DNA of 64,000 nucleotides from Botryllus schlosseri (Eukaryota): assembly GCA_051294905.1 (NCBI GenBank), contig CM119371.1:21702001-21766000 (forward strand). Reading direction: 5' to 3'. Below, piece after piece: positions 332-58,023 of this stretch. The position numbers and the translations under genes are program-made. The notes under the pieces are model-generated. The model had not been told where the DNA came from. It made no database searches and worked only from the letters and a program-made list of their open reading frames with translations. How positions within the stretch are numbered: position 1 is the first letter of the stretch; each line of letters starts with the position of its first letter.

Positions 332-1412
332 CAGTGGTCGGGAACCTATGGCTCGCGAGCCATATATGGCTCTTTTGGGTAAAGATATGGCTCTTTGCCA
401 AAATTCATTTTTGTACTGAATTGATCAATATTGCAGCGACTTGTTGGTAAATATTCATCACGGCTAGAATAATTATTCTCGTGGCAGTATAACCATGTCT
501 TTGAAAGGTAAAGACAATGCCGTCTTCAGGTTTAGGGGCTCGGCTCGGACCCCTTCTTTTCAAAATCATCAAATTTAAGTTACTGCCACGCTGGCGGCCA
601 ATATCACTCGCGAATTCTATGTACTCGACTCGGAATTTTGAATTGTGCGATACGTTGATTAATCAAAGAGCATATTAAGCAGACATGGCGACACCCATTT
701 CAAAACGCAGTTTTCAAATACACATTGTCTTCCTGATCTACGGCGCAAAATGAACTGTTGTGGATGTGAAATTCACAATTACAAACTCGAATTACAAACA
801 ACGCCATAGCATCCACGTTCTTGATTGGTAAGTTTAGCTCTGTGTAGTACCGGCGATAAAATGTATTGGTGTAGCGTAACGTTATATTACCGCCGAATAC
901 TTTGATAACTGAGAAGTCGATTAGTACCGTATTTAGATTTTCGGAATCAGTGTGACAGTCACATTCGATTGATATCGGTTATAATAAATTCTTACGATGA
1001 ATTGCATTATCAATGTTGAGGCTTGGCCCGTCTGTGCTTTACCACTCGTTTCGAGCTTGATTTTCGAACAATAAATACCAGTTTTTACAGAGAAAATATG
1101 GCGCACACGAAGAATTCCAATATACAATTGAATAGTATTTTCATATCGAAATAAACCCGAATATTTTCGGCTGACACTCGTCAGGTTTCGAGTTTATTTC
1201 AATATGAATATACTATTCAATTGTATATTGAAGTTCTGTACATCCAAGAAGCTCTATGAAGAATTCCATGTAGTGAGTTCGAATTAGTGCTAGACGTCAT
1301 GAATTTTCAATTGTGACGTAACGGTTGATTGACATGTATGGCTCTTTGGGAGTTGAGATGGAAAAAATAGGGCCAATATGGCTCTTCGGACAAAAAAGGT
1401 TCCCGACCACTG
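332..1412. mobile_element. Non-autonomous hAT element
   Basis: TIRs CAGTGGTCGGGAACC / GGTTCCCGACCACTG; perfect 8-bp TSD ATCTAATA (324-331, 1413-1420); second copy at 46675-47555. Confidence 0.9.
1120..1257. mobile_element. Short Penelope-like pLTR remnant (family A) with an inverted segment, inserted in the hAT element
   Basis: Matches 49603-49695; forms a hairpin (about 1119-1160 against 1187-1230); flanking duplication GAAGAATTCCA (1109-1119, 1258-1268); absent from the sister hAT copy near 47390. Confidence 0.8.
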
Positions 1413-13002: not shown

Positions 13003-13048
13003 ACTCGAAGAACTTTTCGCGTGCCTCTTATCAAGAGCAACCGGCACG
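13003..13048 (-). ncRNA. Minimal type I hammerhead ribozyme motif (U3-A8 variant) in inverted pLTR
   Basis: CGTGCC-GGTT-GCTC-TTGATAA-G-A-GGCACG-C-GAAA-AGTTCT-TC-GAGT on the minus strand. Confidence 0.65.
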
Positions 13049-13677
13049 ATAAAGGATACAAAACAGAGATGGATTCAAAACCAAATGGTGGGACGCACAT
13101 CCCAACGCTTGCTAGAACGAATCAAAGAGCATGTTCATAAGGGGATAAGATCGGCATCGCAGTCTCCTGATTCTGAAAATATCACCCAGCAATGTAAACA
13201 GAAACTCGCATCAAATCCCAATCGTACAGCCAAGTGTTGGCATGCAGTTCTTCAATTGGCCAGCATTTGATCGCCAACCCGTCTTGTGCCTCAAACTATT
13301 CAGACAACATGTTTTCAGTTTTATCCAAGGGTAGAACCATATTTCATTTAACAGCTTTGGAATCCACTTTCATCAAACTAAATAACCTGGTCCTTTGTCG
13401 CTAGAAAGAATTTTTGTATAATCTTAAAATCTCACACTAGTTGTTGTTGCTTAGCTGTTCGTCCGCATTCCGGTACAATTTTTTTTCTGTGTTGCTGCAT
13501 TGTCTCATTGTATTTGTATGTTATTCCTCACGGGCACTACTTCTTCAAGTTGATTGTTGCTATGTACGCCGCATTGTTGCTATGGTTGAATTTCCATTCA
13601 TGTTATTTATAAATTTTCATTATTGCGTCACAATTCACCGTTTGGTTTTGAATCCATTTCTGTTTTGTATCCTCTAT

Positions 13678-13723
13678 CGTGCCGGTTGCTCTTGATAAGA
13701 GGCACCCGAAAAGTTCTTCGAGT
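13678..13723 (+). ncRNA. Minimal type I hammerhead ribozyme motif (U3-A8 variant) in 3' pLTR
   Basis: Stem I GCTC/GAGT, core TTGATAA...GAAA, quasi-palindromic stem III AGTTCT, predicted cleavage after C13719. Confidence 0.65.
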
Positions 13724-13835
13724 CATTAAATAGGAATTTACTGTTGAAAGCCGTGTTCAAGTTTTGTACCACCAATCAGTTATAAAAATTAGTTATATAA
13801 AATTTGAAAAATTTTGTGTTCACCCCATGAAAGTG

Positions 13836-47555: not shown

Positions 47556-49189
47556 CCATAGATACTGTGAGCAAATTGTAATGATCAAACATCTAAGGAA
47601 CCTTTCATCAGACATGGGGTGATTACTTCATGAATGTAATCGATTGCGATTACGATTACTTCTGAATCACGCGATTACGATTACGATTACGATTACATTG
47701 GAAAAATAATCACGATTACTCACGATTACATTTATTTTGCTTCTTAGAATTAATCTTACAAGATATAGTGAAGGCAATATAAGGATTGCGTCGGAAAGGC
47801 CTAATGAGATAACAACAACTTTCTCAATAAATGATGCGCTATTTGCTTGTTACGTCATAATGTACCAATTGCCCAACTTAATAAGGGACGATTTATCGCA
47901 TCAAACGATTTGCATTCTCGCCAGGTCCGTAACTGAGGCACCCCAGACTTTCCAATAGGGTGATGAGAGCGCTCGAAGAGGACTCAAAAGTATTTGGTAA
48001 AACCAACATTAATTATAGAGTATTTTAGTGAGATTTGATTTACTTGAACATTTTTTTCGGGCTTCGCGATTTAAATGTCTCATGATAGCGTGATTTTGAA
48101 CTGCATACCTCTCACCTTCATGAAAAAAGTATGCATAATCTACAGGAATAAGCATTTCGGTGCCGGTCATTACCAAGCCACGACATATCAAAAGACAATG
48201 CAGTTTGGGCCAACATGTGACTCCATAAGAAGTGTATTACTAAAGAAAAACCTTGGCTAAAACTTTGAGCATGTGTCGTTGGTCAATAGCCGCGTTGGGT
48301 GTGCGTTACTAACAATCCTATCCTTAAAATCTGAGCCCACAATACAAATGCCACCCGGGCCACCCACAGAGGAATAAAGACAGGGCAATTATTTGTGCGT
48401 GCGTCTCACGTCATCTACGTTTTGGTGACTGCAATATCACTTGATGTTATATATGACAGATTGGAGGTCACGAATTACCAACATACAATAAAGTAATTGC
48501 ATCAACATACCAGATGATATAATTATGAATTACGTGCCCTCAGCTCCACAGGTAAATCTGACTATCGGGGGCTGAGAGAGGCCTAAAAATGAATAGTAAT
48601 ATAATGCAATTACTAATATTATTGACAATAATTCAGTCTTCAACTTGAAAATTGACCACCCTATTGGGGCCCAAGACCAACGTTCGTAGTGCAGGACGAA
48701 TTGCTGTTTTGGTCCTTATTCTAGCAACAATCCACGCTCTCGCGGCATATATGCGCATTGCGCATGGTTATGGCAGCAGGTAAAGAATTGCGAAATAACG
48801 ATTGGCGCCCGTTTAAAGTATAGAGTCATATGAGAATAAGATAAAGGGACCATAAAAGTCTGCCTTCTACTTAATACAGATACTACACGCTGCCGTTACG
48901 AGAAACGGCAAATAACGGTTCGGTTATGATATACATAAGCCGCTGTTGATTTTGAATGCTTCGTTGTGGAAATTGTGATGTTTTATTGGGCGAGTACAAA
49001 ATTCCAAATCTTTGCTCGGAGTACGTACGTACGTACTAGGGATGGTGTGAACCTCTGAAAGGTTCAGGTTCGTGTGAACGTGAACCTTTTTGAAAGGTTC
49101 TGTGTAGACAGAGAACACGATCGTGAACCTCATGACGTCACGTGACGTCGTATTTCTAATTCCAACCCTACATTTTAGTGAAGTTATAG

Positions 49190-49695
49190 GACTGCATAAA
49201 CCAACATGTCCCCAGATTTATCAGAACACGTGCGTCACGCGATGTGAAAAGCTCACCCTTAACTCATCCACTTAAGATTGATGCTGATCGATCAAAGGCC
49301 ATTAATTCTGCCATCGGCAAACATCTGTTGGATAATCCGATTTGTGCGAATAATTATCGAGACGACCGATTTCGAATCGTAGGTCGAGGCCGTTCACAAT
49401 TCCATTTGGGTGCCTTGGAATCAACTTTTATCAAAATACACCAACCAAAACTCTGTCAACAAAAGGACTTCGTGTATCACCTAAAAATAGTACATTGAAC
49501 GCTCTCTCATTCGAAATTTCATGCTGGTGACGTCATATTTTGTGATACGATTGTTGATATACAATGTTCTTTCCAATTATCTACAAGTTGCTGACGATTA
49601 CCCCTGACGAGTGTCAGCCGAAAATATTCGGGTTCATTTCAATATGAATATACTATTTAATTGTATATTGAAGTTCTGTACCTCCAAGAAGCTCT
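49190..49695 (+). mobile_element. 5'-truncated Penelope-like element (family A): GIY-YIG C-terminus plus pLTR
   Basis: SAIGKHLLDNPICANNY...FHLGALESTFIKIHQPKLCQQK (49244-49498); TSD TGAAGTTATAG (49179-49189, 49696-49706); empty site in the sister element near 40730. Confidence 0.9.
49590..49633 (+). ncRNA. Minimal type I hammerhead ribozyme motif
   Basis: GCTGAC-GATT-ACCC-CTGACGA-G-T-GTCAGC-C-GAAA-ATAT-TC-GGGT: canonical core, stem I ACCC/GGGT, palindromic ATAT loop III; predicted cleavage after C49629. Confidence 0.78.
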
Positions 49696-52358
49696 TGAAG
49701 TTATAGCCTATATTAATGTACACGATACCTATAGCGATGACGCGGGCAACATAATGCTACTATGCTAAACTACAAATTGACGTTTTAAACGTCGGTAAAT
49801 TTTTCAACTGGGGCAATTAATCGGTATAAAAATCCCTTAAAATCAATATCTTCCGTCGCTTTGCCAACAATTTCGACGAGGACTTGAAAGGGAATATAAG
49901 CTTACGCCTTACCGGTCCAGGCCAGCCCGACAATGTATTCGGCGACTGAGTATGGTGACGTTAATATTGAGAAACGGGATTCTATACTTGCTACCGATAT
50001 TACCCCATTAACAAATTATACAGAAGTAGCCAACGCCCCAATCCCACGGATTTTATTTTTATGATACAATAAAAATATGAAGTCAAGATTGACCACGTTC
50101 ACCTGCTAGATTTTTTTACGTTAGACAACGATATCAATTCCTTTGATTGGTCGAATAAGCATAATTCTCTGGCTACATGTATAGTGCATCTCGCTCTTGA
50201 TGTTGTGTCAATGCTGGTCAAGCTCACAGCAGAGAGTCACTAAATATTCACAAACGGAATGCTGGTTATTTCGAGCAGAATTTTTGAGATTCTCAAGGTG
50301 CATGCTCGTTTAGTGTTGATTTTGTTCAACCAAAGCTGTTATAATGAAGTGAAAACTGTAACATGTGAAAAAAGGTTTACAGTTCAGAACCTAGCAAGGT
50401 TCGTTTGTGAACGTGAACCTCTAAATTTCTGAGGTTCAACACACACAGAACGCGAACGTGAACCTCACGTTCACACCATCCCTGGTAGGTACTGCATAGG
50501 CCTGCTGTTAGCCAAACACCAACAGACAAATTGCGTTTAACTATAAGCATAACCTTTATACATAAGTTACCATTCGCAACTAATAGGCAGAATGGTGATT
50601 ATTATTTTGCTGCGAGGTAGTGGCGTCTGGAGTGTTGCGATAACCTGATATATCGCACGGCAGGTGTTCTTACAATCACACTACAATGAACGTCGAATAT
50701 ATATTTACATACAATGTGTGGATACCTCTTACGCAATCATGAGCGAAGCTAATACTTCTGACGTAATAATGAGCAGTGGTGTTTGTAAATCAGACGTTTG
50801 TGCTATCATTAACCTGGTATAATATATTTTCCGTGTTCGCGAATGTTGAGTTTATGTCATAGTCCTTGTACAAATAAAAAGTAATCGCTCTTTCACAAAG
50901 GAATCGATTAGATATGGGAAGTAGTCGATTACGATTACGATTTCTTCGGAATTTTTTCGAATGTAATCGATTGCGATTACGATTACTTGAAATTGCTGTA
51001 ATCGTCGTAATCGATTACGATTACTAATCGCGATTACCCCATGTCTGCCTTTCATATGCTCACAATTACAATCAATTAAACATTTAGGCATGCGAGACTT
51101 GAGCAGAGGTGGTCCGTATCGGAGCACTTCCACTTTTTGCGAGTATTGGGGTCGGTTTTGCATACTTACATTACTCACTTAATGGGTTATGCTTGTAGAA
51201 TGCTGCCACTTTTATTCGAGCAGACTAATTACTCTCTTTTATCTTTTGGATTTTTTAAAGTAGAAATTGGTAGTGGGACAGTTTGCATCACTCCTGGGAT
51301 TGGATTTAGCATAATAGCCCTACGTGATATAGCATCCTTATGATGGTAACAATGGTTATCAAACTGAGGGGCGTGAAAACATCTTAAGGGGGTGCGAAGC
51401 TGCGACGAACTGCAAAGAAGTTAGCGCTACGCGCAATTTAACTCTAATTACAAGATATTTCTAGTTATAGTCCTAATTTCATATTTGAGAATTCTCCCAT
51501 CAACAGTCCCAACCGTCCATGTCATCAAACTATCCGTTGGGATTGCCAGCATTCTGGTTGCATCTAGTTATATGAAAAACGGGGGGGACAAAATTTCTCT
51601 CTCTCATGAAGGGGGGGGGGGGCGTGTCTAAAAAAGAACGAGAACCACTGCCCGATATATTGTCGAAAATTTTTATGTTTGTAGTGTCATCATTAGGTTC
51701 GATTTGATCTCGCAGATGCACATGGTGGACTATTCATAGTATCAATTTTCCAATTCTAGTTGAAGTAGCTTGCCATGTCCCGAAAATCGCACCTCTACAT
51801 CAAATAGTTTCCTAATTTTGCCATATAATCTAAAGTTCATTGTACCTTAGGAAAACGCTGTTATGTCTTACATGAGCACCATGTTCACGAATACACCATT
51901 CCACACAATATTTATGGTGGTACATGTAGATTGCGTACACTGTACAGTCATATTAAAAAGCCAGGAGAGTGGAGTCAGCATTATTTGCATAAGAGTAGCC
52001 CTGGTTAGATTGTGCTACGTTTCTCATCACAGCCGTTTCCAGATTCCTGGCAATGTGTTGCAAAGGGATTTTCGACCCCAGAGCGCCATCTGGCTGAGTC
52101 ATTTTTCTGAATGTATGCACTTTTCTACATTCTCATAAAAAACTAAACCAAGGAAGTTGTATACACGATTATGTATCAATATACCATATCTAATTACAGG
52201 TGTGATAAACCGGTCACCTCAACTCTCTAAAAAAATCCCAAGTGTAGTGGGTTGAATCTGGTTAATTGAACTTTCTCCTATTTCAAATTTACTGTAAAAT
52301 TGAGCTCACGAGCATAGGCTACTCCTAACAACTAAACGTTTATTGGCCACTAACTCAC

Positions 52359-54028: not shown

Positions 54029-54047
54029 TTTTATTAACTAAGACAAA
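54029..54047 (+). promoter_or_regulatory. Primer-binding site complementary to the element's own LTR (self-priming type)
   Basis: TTTTATTAACTAAGACAAA is the exact reverse complement of 53973-53991. Confidence 0.8.
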
Positions 54048-54059
54048 GCAGCTTTAGTC

Positions 54060-57000
54060 ATGTCGGTCGATGGAGAAGCAGAAAACCGTCGACGCCCTAT
54101 TCTCATAAGGGTACCTACTCTTGAGGTGTTACCGAATGCTCCGGCCGTTCAGAAGTCATTCTGTCATTGGGAACGACAACTGGAATCCTACATAGCTGCT
54201 GCATCCTTTGCCGATGTCACAGTAGGTAAGCTTGCATTATTGTGTGGATTCATTTCGGCGGACGTCTACGCATTGATAGAAGAAAAGCAATCCTACGACG
54301 AAGCTTTGAAGTTATTACAGGATCTTTACAAACCTAAGAAAAATGTTATATTTTCAAGACATCTTCTCTCAAGTAGGGCGCAAGATACCCAGCGAGACCG
54401 TTCAGGAATTTCACCAAAGCTTATCAGCGCTCGCAAAGGATTGCGATTTCAAGAGTGTCACCGCCGAGCAATATCGCCAAGAATCCATGAGAGATGCTTT
54501 CATCAGAGGTTTGAAATCTTCCCATATACGTACGAGACTGCTTGAATACGAGGAACTGCCACTGCAAAAAGCGATTATCACTGCTATTTCACTGGAGAAA
54601 GATCAAGAATTTTCCACTTCCTATAAAGTTAATGACATCGATGCACGTTTCGTTGCAAGCACCTCTAACGATCCCAGCCGGCCTGCGAGAGACGCACCGG
54701 ATCCTCAGCTCAACACGGTTTCTGCAATTAGCAGAGTGTCCGAAGTCAAATCAATCAAAAAATGCACGTTCTGTGGAGGTACCCATGTCGCTAAGCGCGA
54801 CCAATGCCCAGCATCGATGGTTGAATGTTATAAATGTGGCAGACTTGGACATTTCAGAAAGTTCTGTAAATCAGAAAGCAAATACCTGGCTGCTGCTCCG
54901 AAATGTTTGAAGGACTCGACCATACCCCTTACAACTGCACAGCAGATATTCGATGCTATGCTCGATTCGGGAGCTGCTGAATGTTTCATCAAACTGGATA
55001 TTGCCATCAAACTATAGGTTTGTTTCCACAGGGACCAACTTACAGTATCAAATTGGCTTCCAACAAATGCGCCACCGATGTGCTAGGACACGTTACTGTC
55101 GTATTCATAGTGGCGTCACGTGAGTACACTCATCAATTTGGCATGATCGATGATTTATGTGCAGACTTCGTCCTCGGACTAGATTTCATGAGATTGCACA
55201 AGAAGGTTATTTTCGAATTCAAAGATGGCAAGAACGAGCCATTTACAGTAGGCGTAAACTCTCACTTGGCACTTGTTACTTCCAAAGTCGATGAACCGCT
55301 TCGTATATTCCAATTATTGACTCCAGATTGCAAACCTATTGCCGCTCCTTCTCGAAGGTATAGCAAAGAAGATAACGAATTTAATAAAGGAGAAGTACAG
55401 AAGCTCCTCAGTGACGGTATCATAGATCCGAGTCATTCACCTTGGCGTGCTCAGCCACTAGTAACCTGGGACGCGCGGCATAAACGAAGACTTGTCATTG
55501 ACTATTCAGTATCTATCAACAGGTACACCAATTTGGATGCTTATCCACTGCCACGTATAGAAGATGTTATCAATGAAGTCTCTAAAGGCAAGTACTATTC
55601 AGCCGTTGATTTGAAATCGACTTACCATCAAGTCCCGTTACACCCTGATGACAGACCTTTCACGGCGTTCGCCGCTTGCGGTTCACTTTACCAATTTTGC
55701 AGATTACCGTTCGGCGTCACGAATGGAGTAGCGGCTTATCAACGTTACATCGATTCGTTTATTTCAAAGCATCAATTACAGGGTGTAGTGGCGTATTTGG
55801 ATGATATTACAATCTATGGCGCGACCAAGGAAGAGCATGATATCCGCTTGAAAGCATTTTTAGATTCCGCAACAGCTTGTCACCTCACCATCAATACAGA
55901 GAAATCAAGTTTTGGAATCGAAGAAATACAATTGCTTGGATAACTGGTTGGTGGTACAGAACTTGAACACGGCATTTAACAGTATATTCATATTTATTGA
56001 CTTGAAGAACTTTTCGCGTGCCTCTTATCAAGAGCACCCGGCACGATAAAGAATATACAGAACAGATGGATTCAAAACCAAATGGCGAATTGTGACGTGA
56101 TAATGCAAATTTATAAATAACATGAATGGAAATTCAGCCATAGCAACAATGCAGCGTATATAGCAACAAGCAACTTGAAAAGTAGAGCGCGTGAGGTATA
56201 AAATACAAATACAATGAGACAATGCAGCAACACAGAGGAAAAAAATGAACAAAAACACGGACGAACAGCTAACAATTGCTTGGGCACAAAATATCTCACG
56301 GCAACATAAGTCCGGACCCTGACCACATGAAGCCGCTCCCGGAAATGGCCGCGCCAACGGACTCTAAAGGTTTGAAACGTATATGCGGTATGTTTTCATA
56401 TTATTCCAAATGGATTCACAATTTCTCGGCTAAGATTAGGCCTCTTATTCGTTCATCCAATTTTCCTTTGGGACCTGATGCTATTGCTGCTTTTCGTCAA
56501 TTGAAGAAAGAGATAATGGATGCATTTACAAAGACCAACCATTTACAGTTGAGTGCGACGCGTCAAACTGCGCCATTGCAGCAGTTTTGAATCAGTGTGA
56601 TCGGCCTGTAGCGTTCTTCTCTCGCACACTTACAAAGACAGAATCGAACTACCCCGCTATTGAGAAAGAAGCTCTCGCAATCATTGAATCGGTTCGGAAG
56701 TGGAACTACTTGCTTGCCAATGAGAAATTCCTTCTTGTTACAGATCAAAGAGCGTTATCTTACATATTTCAGAAGAAGCATCACAGCAAAATCAAGAATA
56801 CAAAACTTGCGCTATGGCGTCTTGAACTCAGCTCTTTCAACTATGACATTTCACATCGCGCGGGAATCGAAAACGTCGCTGCAGACACCTTGTCTCGTAT
56901 CTGCTCCGTAACCGGTTCAGGTCAAAATTTAAATGAAATCCATGCACAACTTGGCCATCCCGGAGTTAGCCGATTGGCCCACTTTGTTAAATCCAAGAAT

Positions 57001-58023
57001 TTACCGTATTCCACGGAAGACGTGAAACGTATCTGTTCCGGCTGCCGTGTATGCACAGAACTTAAACCTAGATTTTATAAAGGAGATTCTCACCAACTGA
57101 TCAAAGCCATTTATCCCTGACAAAGAATATCAATCGATTTCAAAGGTCCGGTCCCCTGTAAACGTAAATTCATTTTAATCATTGTCGACGAATATTCACG
57201 ATTCCCTTTTGCATTTCCATGCTACAATATGACGTCGGAAACCGTAATCGAATGTCTAATGACGTAGTTCACTCTCGTTGGATTGCCTGAATATGTACAT
57301 AGCGATAGATCGATGTCATTTATGTCGAAAAGAATGAACGATTTCCTAACGAAGAAAGGTGTTGCAACAAGTCAATCAACCCCTTATCACCCCACTGGCA
57401 ACTCCCAATGTGAGAGAACCAACCAAACTGTTTGGAGAACAGTTGAACCACTGCTTGCCCAATACCAAATGCCACTGTCCTCATGGGAGGAGGTACTCCC
57501 AGACGCATTACATTGTATCAGGTCGCTTCTGTGCACGGCTACAAATTGTACACCTCACGATCGATTTTTCTCTTTTCAAAGGCGATCAATGAATGGCTCT
57601 TCATTACCCGATTGGCTTTTCAAGTCGGGTACAGTTCTACTGCGTAAGTTCGTCCGCGATAAGAGTGACCCTTTATGCGATAAAGTGTATTTACTCGATG
57701 CTAATCCAAAATACGCTTTGATTCGCTATCCAGATGGAAGAGAGTCGACCGTCTCCACTACAGACCTTGCTCCTTATCCGCGTATGACCGAGGTCACCGA
57801 ATCCTTGCCACAAGGAAAGAAATCTCTTCCTTCTCAATCGGACTTGGATATGCCCTCCAGCGAAATCGAAGAAGAAAAGGTTACTCAGGCCGACGTATTC
57901 TGTAGTGAGGACGCTACCATCCCTGCTGAAATCGCTGACAATGCTCAAAGCAGTTCGACTCCGAGACGCTCTTCACGGACAAGACGAGCTCCTGATAGAT
58001 ATGGGGATTTCGTTTCTCATTAG
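54060..58023 (+). pseudogene. gag-pol polyprotein, disrupted
   Basis: CCHC knuckle CYKCGRLGHFRKFC, protease LDSGA, RT LPFG and YLDD, RNase H (EKEALAI, TDQ, ADTLSR), integrase HHCC and D,D,E; several frameshifts, stops (e.g. TGA 57118-57120) and a PLE insertion. Confidence 0.93.
55940..56271 (-). mobile_element. Solo Penelope-like pLTR (family B) inserted in Gypsy pol
   Basis: Reverse complement of about 13450-13782; TSD ACAATTGCTTGG (55928-55939, 56272-56283); carries the hammerhead motif at 56000-56045 with one stem I mismatch. Confidence 0.9.

Follow-up and report, generated by a model that had tools for sequence, protein, structure and literature searches.

A 64,000-nucleotide stretch of Botryllus schlosseri DNA (assembly GCA_051294905.1, contig CM119371.1, forward-strand positions 21,702,001 to 21,766,000; hereafter the window, to whose numbering the coordinates below refer) contains, close to the 3' end of a truncated Penelope-like element (PLE), a short motif with the conserved core of a hammerhead ribozyme and with only nine bases in which a helix II could be formed. 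The question raised by this locus is what takes the place of that helix. It is argued here that the partner strand lies on the 5' side of helix I, and that the module is probably the hammerhead ribozyme of canonical PLEs with a C-terminal endonuclease in a knotted form whose helix II is a pseudoknot. This reading is directly supported by the sequence anatomy of the motif, by covariation in both the knot and helix I, by the PLE context and by the copy number.

Anatomy of the Motif

The motif of what is here called family A is a type I hammerhead of 44 nt at 49590-49633 of the plus strand. It reads GCUGAC/GAUU/ACCC/CUGACGA/G/U/GUCAGC/C/GAAA/AUAU/UC/GGGU, which is, letter for letter, the parse given in a preliminary description of the window. 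Its parts are as follows.

49590..49595, plus strand: 5' pseudoknot strand GCUGAC, the 10.x strand of helix II, with 6/6 Watson-Crick pairs to 49613-49618
49596..49599, plus strand: tether GAUU, from the knot strand to helix I
49600..49603, plus strand: helix I 5' strand ACCC, pairing with 49630-49633
49604..49610, plus strand: core C3-A9, CUGACGA
49611..49619, plus strand: G10.1 (49611), bridging U (49612), knot 3' strand GUCAGC (49613-49618) and C11.1 (49619)
49620..49629, plus strand: G12-A13-A14, palindrome AAUAUU (minimal helix III, 15.1-16.1) and C17
49630..49633, plus strand: helix I 3' strand GGGU

The hammerhead core C3-U4-G5-A6-N7-G8-A9, G12-A13-A14, A15.1-U16.1 and H17 is present in full, with U3/A8 in the B families introduced below. 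Helix I of family A has 4 bp, the GAAA box is present and the cleavage site is UC, H17 being the C at 49629 and cleavage being predicted at 49629/49630. The interval between A9 and G12 has only nine bases, too few for helix II to be a hairpin. Among these nine, G10.1 pairs with C11.1 and so closes a loop of 7 nt, of which six bases lie in the knot, whose upstream strand ends 8 nt 5' of the core. The sequence confirmed the earlier description of stem II as a single G-C pair whose loop pairs over 6 bp with a 5' strand. This pairing of 5' tail and loop had further been regarded as stabilising the ribozyme. It does covary, across lineages and in a second organism, and only the word needs changing: because no other helix II is possible, the pairing is better named helix II itself than a stabilising extra. 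The leading base of the tether is G in 18/18 parsed copies.

In family A, the upstream strand and linker repeat the core word CTGACGA, which is not so in the other families. At two family A loci (L092 and L093), the sequence between both CTGACGA words has been deleted, helix I and the knot strand are both lost, and the upstream CTGACGA acts directly as the 'core'. Another family A copy in the window (1149-1204, minus strand) has its core, loop, helix III palindrome and helix I 3' strand intact, while its knot strand and helix I 5' strand have been swapped for unrelated sequence, i.e., its junction is truncated or rearranged. A separate complementarity links C11.1-G12-A13-A14 to U16.2-U16.1-C17-G1.1 in families A, A2, B and B-major (e.g., window 49619-49632). 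The small hairpin drawn from it by RNAfold (CCGAA...UUCGG in family A) would conceal, in the monomer, the GAAA box as well as the cleavage site, and may be an off state that is resolved by dimer formation.

Covariation of the Knot and of Helix I

Related copies were grouped into families, which differ in the knot (upstream strand/loop strand) and in other modules.

Family A: GCUGAC/GUCAGC; window copy at 49590
Family A2: knot identical to that of A; tether differs; helix III AAGCUU
Family B: CGUGCC/GGCACG; U3/A8 core
Family B-major: UGUGCC/GGCACC; core UUGAAAA; five pairs and a fixed U.C mismatch
Relatives of family B: upstream UGUGCC or GGUGCC; loops GGCACA and GGCAUA
Family C: ACUGGC/GCCAGU; helix I variants CACUC/GAGUG, CACUG/CAGUG and CGCUC/GAGUG
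Families D and E: single decayed copies, with one internal mismatch each or an ambiguous register

Together with UGACGC/GCGUCA of L253, a locus of a second organism described below, the knots of families A, B and C make up four clean and distinct knots. Families A and B had been said to show full covariation, which was an overstatement: of the six pairs in their knots, U:A, G:C and C:G are common to both, and the three that differ are all compensated. The accompanying remark that all modules apart from loop III are equally long in both families agrees with the sequences.

In an alignment of 17 natural copies, 95.0% of the cells of the knot plus G10.1:C11.1 were paired, versus 21.0-37.8% when the partners were slid by 1-3 columns; the covariation score was 0.508 versus 0.132 after shuffling, with 0/500 shuffles as high, and two-sided changes occurred at 4/6 knot pairs. 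These figures are descriptive, and the case is weaker to that extent, as the 17 copies were hand-picked from pattern matches and are mutually related. G10.1:C11.1 was unchanged in all 17. In a less selective set of 122 distinct pattern-matching copies, which takes in decayed copies and non-hammerhead chance matches, 79 copies (47 of them with 6/6) had no fewer than five of the six pairs at the offset that was predicted, against only 5-11 copies at the four control offsets. Pattern matches that are not knotted hammerheads were left out of the alignment (L095/L096, L111/L112, L079/L080, L068, L072, L074 and L086/L087). L108/L109, in which an insertion precedes the core, was also left out, though its knot would pair with one G.U.

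Helix I covaries as well (ACCC/GGGU, GCUC/GAGU, CACUG/CAGUG, CACUC/GAGUG, GCUA/UAGC and CCCA/UGGG). It is complementary in 14 of the 18 parsed copies, the failures being three damaged copies and the family E copy E_L134, an ambiguous case with two possible registers and a damaged cleavage site. The helix III palindromes are perfect (AAUAUU and AAGCUU) or nearly so (AAGUCUU and AAGUUCUU). The tether has 4 nt in A, B and L253 and 0-1 nt in C, B-major and D, where the tether bases can pair downstream and helix I is lengthened to 7-8 bp through this pairing.

Family B Copies in the Window

Three copies in the window had been assigned to family B with a single sequence. The first of them indeed reads CGTGCC-GGTT-GCTC-TTGATAA-G-A-GGCACG-C-GAAA-AGTTCT-TC-GAGT; the other two deviate from it.

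13003..13048, minus strand: family B knotted hammerhead, intact by sequence parse, CGUGCC/GGCACG
13678..13723, plus strand: family B copy with loop GGCACC, giving a C.C mismatch at the outer knot pair
56000..56045, minus strand: family B copy inside a Gypsy-type long terminal repeat (LTR) element, with intact knot, linker GGGT and a helix I damaged by AAGT in place of GAGT

The family B core UUGAUAA is the U3/A8 form, and a compensated U3-A8 core variant of PLE hammerheads has been described before (Cervera and de la Pena, 2014, PMC4209133). The Gypsy-type LTR retroelement (54042-58023, plus strand) has zinc knuckle, RVT_1, RNase H and integrase matches, and is broken at about 55943-56479 by the short insertion that bears the minus-strand family B hammerhead.

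Penelope-Like Element Context and Copy Number

Judged by their protein matches, the elements that carry the motif are canonical PLEs of several lineages, in which the endonuclease is C-terminal. RVT_1 and GIY-YIG matches were obtained, C-terminal homology was found in families A, A2, B, B-major and C, and in the same families the motif lies 95-280 nt beyond the stop codon of the open reading frame (ORF) with the C-terminal GIY-YIG domain, which supports the earlier assignment to the minimal type I hammerheads of PLEs. The C-terminal protein regions (GIY-YIG endonuclease) of the lineages are 47-59% identical, and the A/A2 and A/C matches reach further upstream. The family A2 protein is 59% identical to that of family A, and family C copies lie about 280 nt past the end of an ORF that is 52-54% identical to the family A protein. 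The layout is present in at least four PLE lineages of the genome and in one metagenome contig. An identity as Naiad-type PLEs was rejected, the endonuclease being C-terminal in these elements. The corresponding remnants in the window are the following.

49181..49495, plus strand: C-terminal GIY-YIG endonuclease remnant of the family A PLE ORF, 95% identical to P0001 residues 360-464
49150..49700, plus strand: 5'-truncated family A PLE copy; coverage by other copies climbs toward 49700 and ends there
13088..13431, plus strand: family B PLE endonuclease remnant, 47-56% identical to P0001 residues 354-462, on the 5' side of the plus-strand hammerhead

The family A hammerhead is thereby placed about 70 nt from the 3' end of its copy. 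In the 495-Mb genome assembly, the core pattern YTGANRAG-N7-CGAAA-N4-TC was matched 3787+3752 times (7,539), against 4+5 (9) matches of the reversed control, and the U3/A8 pattern TTGANAAG-N7-CGAAA was matched 1473 times, against 76 for its reversed control.

Inverted pairs of hammerheads, 100-1500 nt apart and with their 5' ends facing, are common among the copies; one of them is at 13003-13723 of the window, and others are at loci L002, L004, L006-L008, L012, L024, L028, L075, L081, L082 and L085. These pairs fit the 'inverted 5'-truncated copy' arrangement described for PLEs. As they place one sense and one antisense motif in each transcript, they cannot supply a ribozyme dimer.

A Second Organism and Phage Examples

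A scan of metagenome contigs with an alignment of PLE C-termini gave a single related locus, L253, whose endonuclease is 45% identical over 202 residues. About 170 nt past the ORF match, it reads UGACGC/GAUA(A)/CCCA/CUGAAGA/G/U/GCGUCA/C/GAAA/AGCU/UC/UGGG. All six knot pairs are Watson-Crick, five of the six are unlike those of family A, and the differences include both knot pairs that are nearly fixed in the B. schlosseri genome. L253 was read by direct parse and stands outside the pair counts given above (MAFFT had put it one column off register). In two scans of viral contigs, the upstream complement was absent from 8/8 chance matches to PLE-type core patterns.

Natural pseudoknot (PK) hammerheads of phages were also found in the contigs (L204, L139/L171, L211, L183 and L166). 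They read CUGAUGA-G-N6-C-GAAA, with the complementary strand in a 3-5 bp hairpin and an A-rich linker of 6-7 nt; L211, the phage copy that was parsed in full, has a 7-bp helix III hairpin. Other IMG/VR sequences (L142, L143, L152, L176, L181, L190, L201 and others) match CUGAUGA-G-N6-C-GAAAC with a closed helix I hairpin directly upstream, e.g., ...CCGG-UAAnAG-UCCGG, with loops such as CAAGAG and CAGAAG. These look like a recurrent hammerhead type that is distinct from the helix IV pseudoknot form.

Comparison With Known Ribozymes

The preliminary description could not place the motif among known subclasses. Its architecture is in fact already published, as the PK hammerhead with a crystal structure (PDB 8YDC; Zhan et al., 2024, PMC11300833), and the part that appears to be new is its occurrence in PLEs together with the differences from the published form. 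In the PK hammerhead of that paper, helix II gives way to a 6-bp pseudoknot, for which the loop that G10.1-C11.1 closes pairs with the loop of helix IV, a hairpin lying further upstream. Helix IV is connected to helix I by an A-rich linker, which makes A-minor triples in the crystal, and the bioinformatic discovery is credited to Weinberg et al. (2015). A search of the literature found no link of a hammerhead with a pseudoknot for helix II to PLEs, though Lunse et al. (2017) or Weinberg (2015) may show it; that Lunse et al. (2017) already contains such a description is unlikely, but the chance is a substantial one.

The two forms share the type I block order, CUGANGA, G10.1, a short loop, C11.1-GAAA and a helix of about 6 bp with a strand 5' of helix I. 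In both, the far end of the knot has a purine-purine or G.N apposition, namely the capping G:A pair in the crystal and the invariant tether G facing the bridging base in the PLE form. The loop has 7 nt in the PLE form (six Watson-Crick pairs and one bridging base), versus 6 nt in 8YDC, as described there, and in the phage copies. In the PK and phage forms, the upstream strand sits in a helix IV hairpin of 3-5 bp, from which an A-rich linker of 6-7 nt leads on, whereas the PLE form has a tether of 0-4 nt; a conserved helix IV with a docking A-rich linker is absent from the aligned PLE copies, and the flanks of B, B-major, C and L253 are unpairable. The flanks of the knot strand in A and A2 pair weakly (AU/GU), and such a stem would lie directly against helix I. 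Phage L211 has a 7-bp hairpin as its helix III and is hence monomeric, in contrast to the bare palindrome of the PLE form. Phage helix I 5' strands have 6 nt, in comparison with a helix I of 4-5 bp, up to 8, in the PLE form. The hosts differ too, the PLE form belonging to an animal retroelement and the natural PK examples to phage contigs.

The PLE hammerheads of Cervera and de la Pena (2014, PMC4209133) have a helix I of 4-5 bp, conserved G10.1-C11.1, palindromic positions replacing helix III, and, after a single unpaired base, a helix II in the form of a hairpin of 7-8 bp (6 bp in D. virilis), which the descriptor requires; their activity in vitro was low, as dimers. The 30-plus PLE hammerheads of Craig et al. 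(2021, PMC8557442, File S2) all have a hairpin stem II of 3-9 bp, and reviews describe PLE hammerheads as being without helix III and without the tertiary contacts that are needed for activity in cells. The present motif resembles the published PLE hammerheads in its position near the 3' end or pseudo-LTR (pLTR), type I order, helix I of 4-5 bp, palindromic helix III, G10.1-C11.1, U3-A8 variant, thousands of dispersed copies and an overall helix II of about 7 bp. It differs from them in the location of the helix II 5' strand, which has been shifted to a place 5' of helix I, and a hairpin with a bulged base is not found.

The non-circular permutations SGC, CSG and GCS have a pseudoknotted core, and their short linker between stems I and II has been suggested to draw the stems together (Eckert et al., 2023, PMC10085705). 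Pseudoknots that replace the plain three-way junction and a short linker between stems I and II are common to these permutations and the PLE form, but the latter keeps the classic C-G-S (type I) order of blocks, and nothing is displaced in it except the distal 5' strand of helix II. The pistol ribozyme and the PK hammerhead share secondary structure and connectivity, including the 6-bp pseudoknot, as stated by Zhan et al. (2024, PMC11300833); unlike pistol, the PLE core CUGANGA...GAAA...UH is that of a hammerhead.

Proposed Mechanism and Alternative Explanations

In the proposed fold, helix II would consist of G10.1-C11.1 stacked on the 6-bp helix between the 7-nt 'loop II' and the strand 5' of helix I, the whole monomer of 44-46 nt would be an H-type pseudoknot, and the single base after G10.1 would bridge the groove of the 6-bp helix. 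One base spanning a helix of 6-7 bp across the deep groove is the classic geometry of H-type pseudoknots. The tether of 0-4 nt, starting with the conserved G, would join the knot helix and helix I at their far ends. Such a covalent link could hold helices I and II side by side, replacing the loop-loop contacts of extended hammerheads. As helix III is a bare palindrome of 6-8 nt, efficient cleavage after C17 probably needs two copies pairing through helix III, which has been suggested for other PLE hammerheads too, or the protein of the element. We infer catalysis, dimer formation and the role of the tether; an active fold is expected because the same connectivity is active in the published PK hammerhead.

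Several results weigh against this reading. The motif region is transcribed from both strands in three raw-read RNA runs, and in these runs no pile-up of read ends was seen at 49629/49630. In one bulk RNA-seq run, the read depth peaks across the site (about 420+459 in the bin 49620-49635), and a maximal depth together with the lack of an end pile-up indicates that most transcripts are uncut. The RNA-seq data argue against efficient cleavage of bulk, mostly solitary copies, and are compatible with cleavage of rare tandem transcripts. For an Anolis PLE hammerhead, the same negative read-end result is reported, yet also cleavage in vitro, only with the protein of the element (PMC11167929). No Rfam hammerhead match was obtained for families A or B when the whole window was scanned at the gathering score and the regions around 49500-49720 and 13600-13800 at E values up to 10, and membership in the hammerhead class therefore rests on the manual parse; the same scans gave no match to pistol or any other Rfam ribozyme.

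The pairing itself is also open to objection. The family A loop GUCAG can alternatively pair locally with core C3-C7, and RNAfold favours this core-sequestering hairpin (-10.5 kcal/mol, versus -7.4 for the knot helix alone), so that family A would be ambiguous if taken by itself, and it is the other families that carry the case. B-major, the most abundant U3/A8 family, has only five knot pairs and a fixed U.C mismatch, which was present in 5/5 copies having the unmutated GGCACC loop and the UGUGCC upstream strand. Among seven fetched family A copies with loop variants (GCCAGC, GGCAGC or GACAGC), four retain the upstream GCTGAC uncompensated and in the remaining three the upstream region has been replaced or rearranged; L048, a family A copy with the loop GUCUGC, retains GCTGAC as well. 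Compensated double changes within family A were sought in these seven copies and L048, and none was found. This lack of compensation is what would be expected if copies decay neutrally after insertion, and comparisons inside family A thus favour neither side.

Four other explanations were weighed. The knot could be a structural signal of the 3' region of the element, for binding of the reverse transcriptase (RT) or the start of reverse transcription, the core being a non-catalytic relic. The missing read ends would suit this explanation, as would the poor cleavage of minimal PLE hammerheads in vitro (PMC4209133) and the finding that hammerhead mutants left insertion by an Anolis PLE in vitro unaffected (PMC11167929). 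However, across lineages whose proteins are about 50% identical, the intact representatives all keep C3/G8 or U3/A8, G5, A6, G12, A13, A14 and U16.1-H17, which is hard to explain without selection on catalysis, and the protein-dependent cleavage reported for Anolis also speaks against a relic. We consider this explanation improbable.

A domain-swapped dimer, in which the loop of one molecule or copy would find its upstream strand in another, is very unlikely. Covariation is blind to pairing in cis or in trans among identical copies, and PLE ribozymes are thought to act as dimers; against this, the cis strand is merely 8-9 nt from the core, and the phage and crystal form pairs in cis within the ribozyme strand.

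A slightly slimmer chance still is given to the view that the 6-bp pairing, by trapping the core in a loop, produces an inhibitory off state, and that the active form is arranged otherwise. Taken as a nested structure, the helix does enclose the helix I 5' strand and the core, and family A has the second, competing hairpin mentioned above; but the nine available nucleotides allow no other helix II, and in the solved PK hammerhead (PMC11300833) a fold with identical connectivity is the active one. Finally, complementarity by chance, or as a by-product of the duplicated CTGACGA whose second copy the family A upstream strand overlaps, has next to no probability and is contradicted by the unrelated knots at the same place in families B, C and L253, by the control offsets and by the chance pattern matches without pairing.

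Implications for Retroelement Ribozymes

An architecture of phage and bacterial ribozymes with a crystal structure is now linked to a eukaryotic mobile element. The weak activity in vitro had left the role of PLE hammerheads open, and a pseudoknot helix II held by a tether offers a testable reason for productive folding. Hairpin-based descriptors (RNAmotif) and Rfam under-count retroelement ribozymes, with at least 7,539 such sites in this genome. A wider proposal is made only tentatively, and we think it somewhat more doubtful than not: the knotted hammerhead may be what a large branch of animal PLEs, spanning multiple species, normally uses as its ribozyme, missed by descriptors that demand a hairpin and by Rfam, with the tether replacing the lacking loop-loop contact. 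A natural RNA of 44 nt would in that case form a whole hammerhead and position its helices by itself.

A side lead concerns the Naiad PLEs of nematodes. In passages of File_S5 of Craig et al. (2021, PMC8557442), the 3' ends of six Naiad consensus sequences appear, by eye, to contain a full hammerhead in the order CUGANGA, GUC/GUU site, GAAA. Three of the six are from Nippostrongylus brasiliensis, and the other three entries are without names in the same file stretch. Three of the passages end before the headers Naiad-2_Nbra, Naiad-3_Nbra and Naiad_Hcon, one ends before Naiad_Asuum, and there are two more. That paper lists these Naiads as 'HHR_core' or 'HHR_half_core', without canonical hammerheads. 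On the wider proposal, and together with these C-S-G motifs, PLEs 'lacking canonical hammerheads' would carry topologically rearranged ones. The order corresponds to 'type-CSG', a permutation known to Eckert et al. (2023, PMC10085705) from two metagenomic sequences, and the assignment of the Naiad 3'-end motifs to it is a lead only. In these six sequences, each of helices I, II and III is complementary, with bases that vary from one element to the next, and an extra helix would link a strand upstream of helix I to a strand after helix II.

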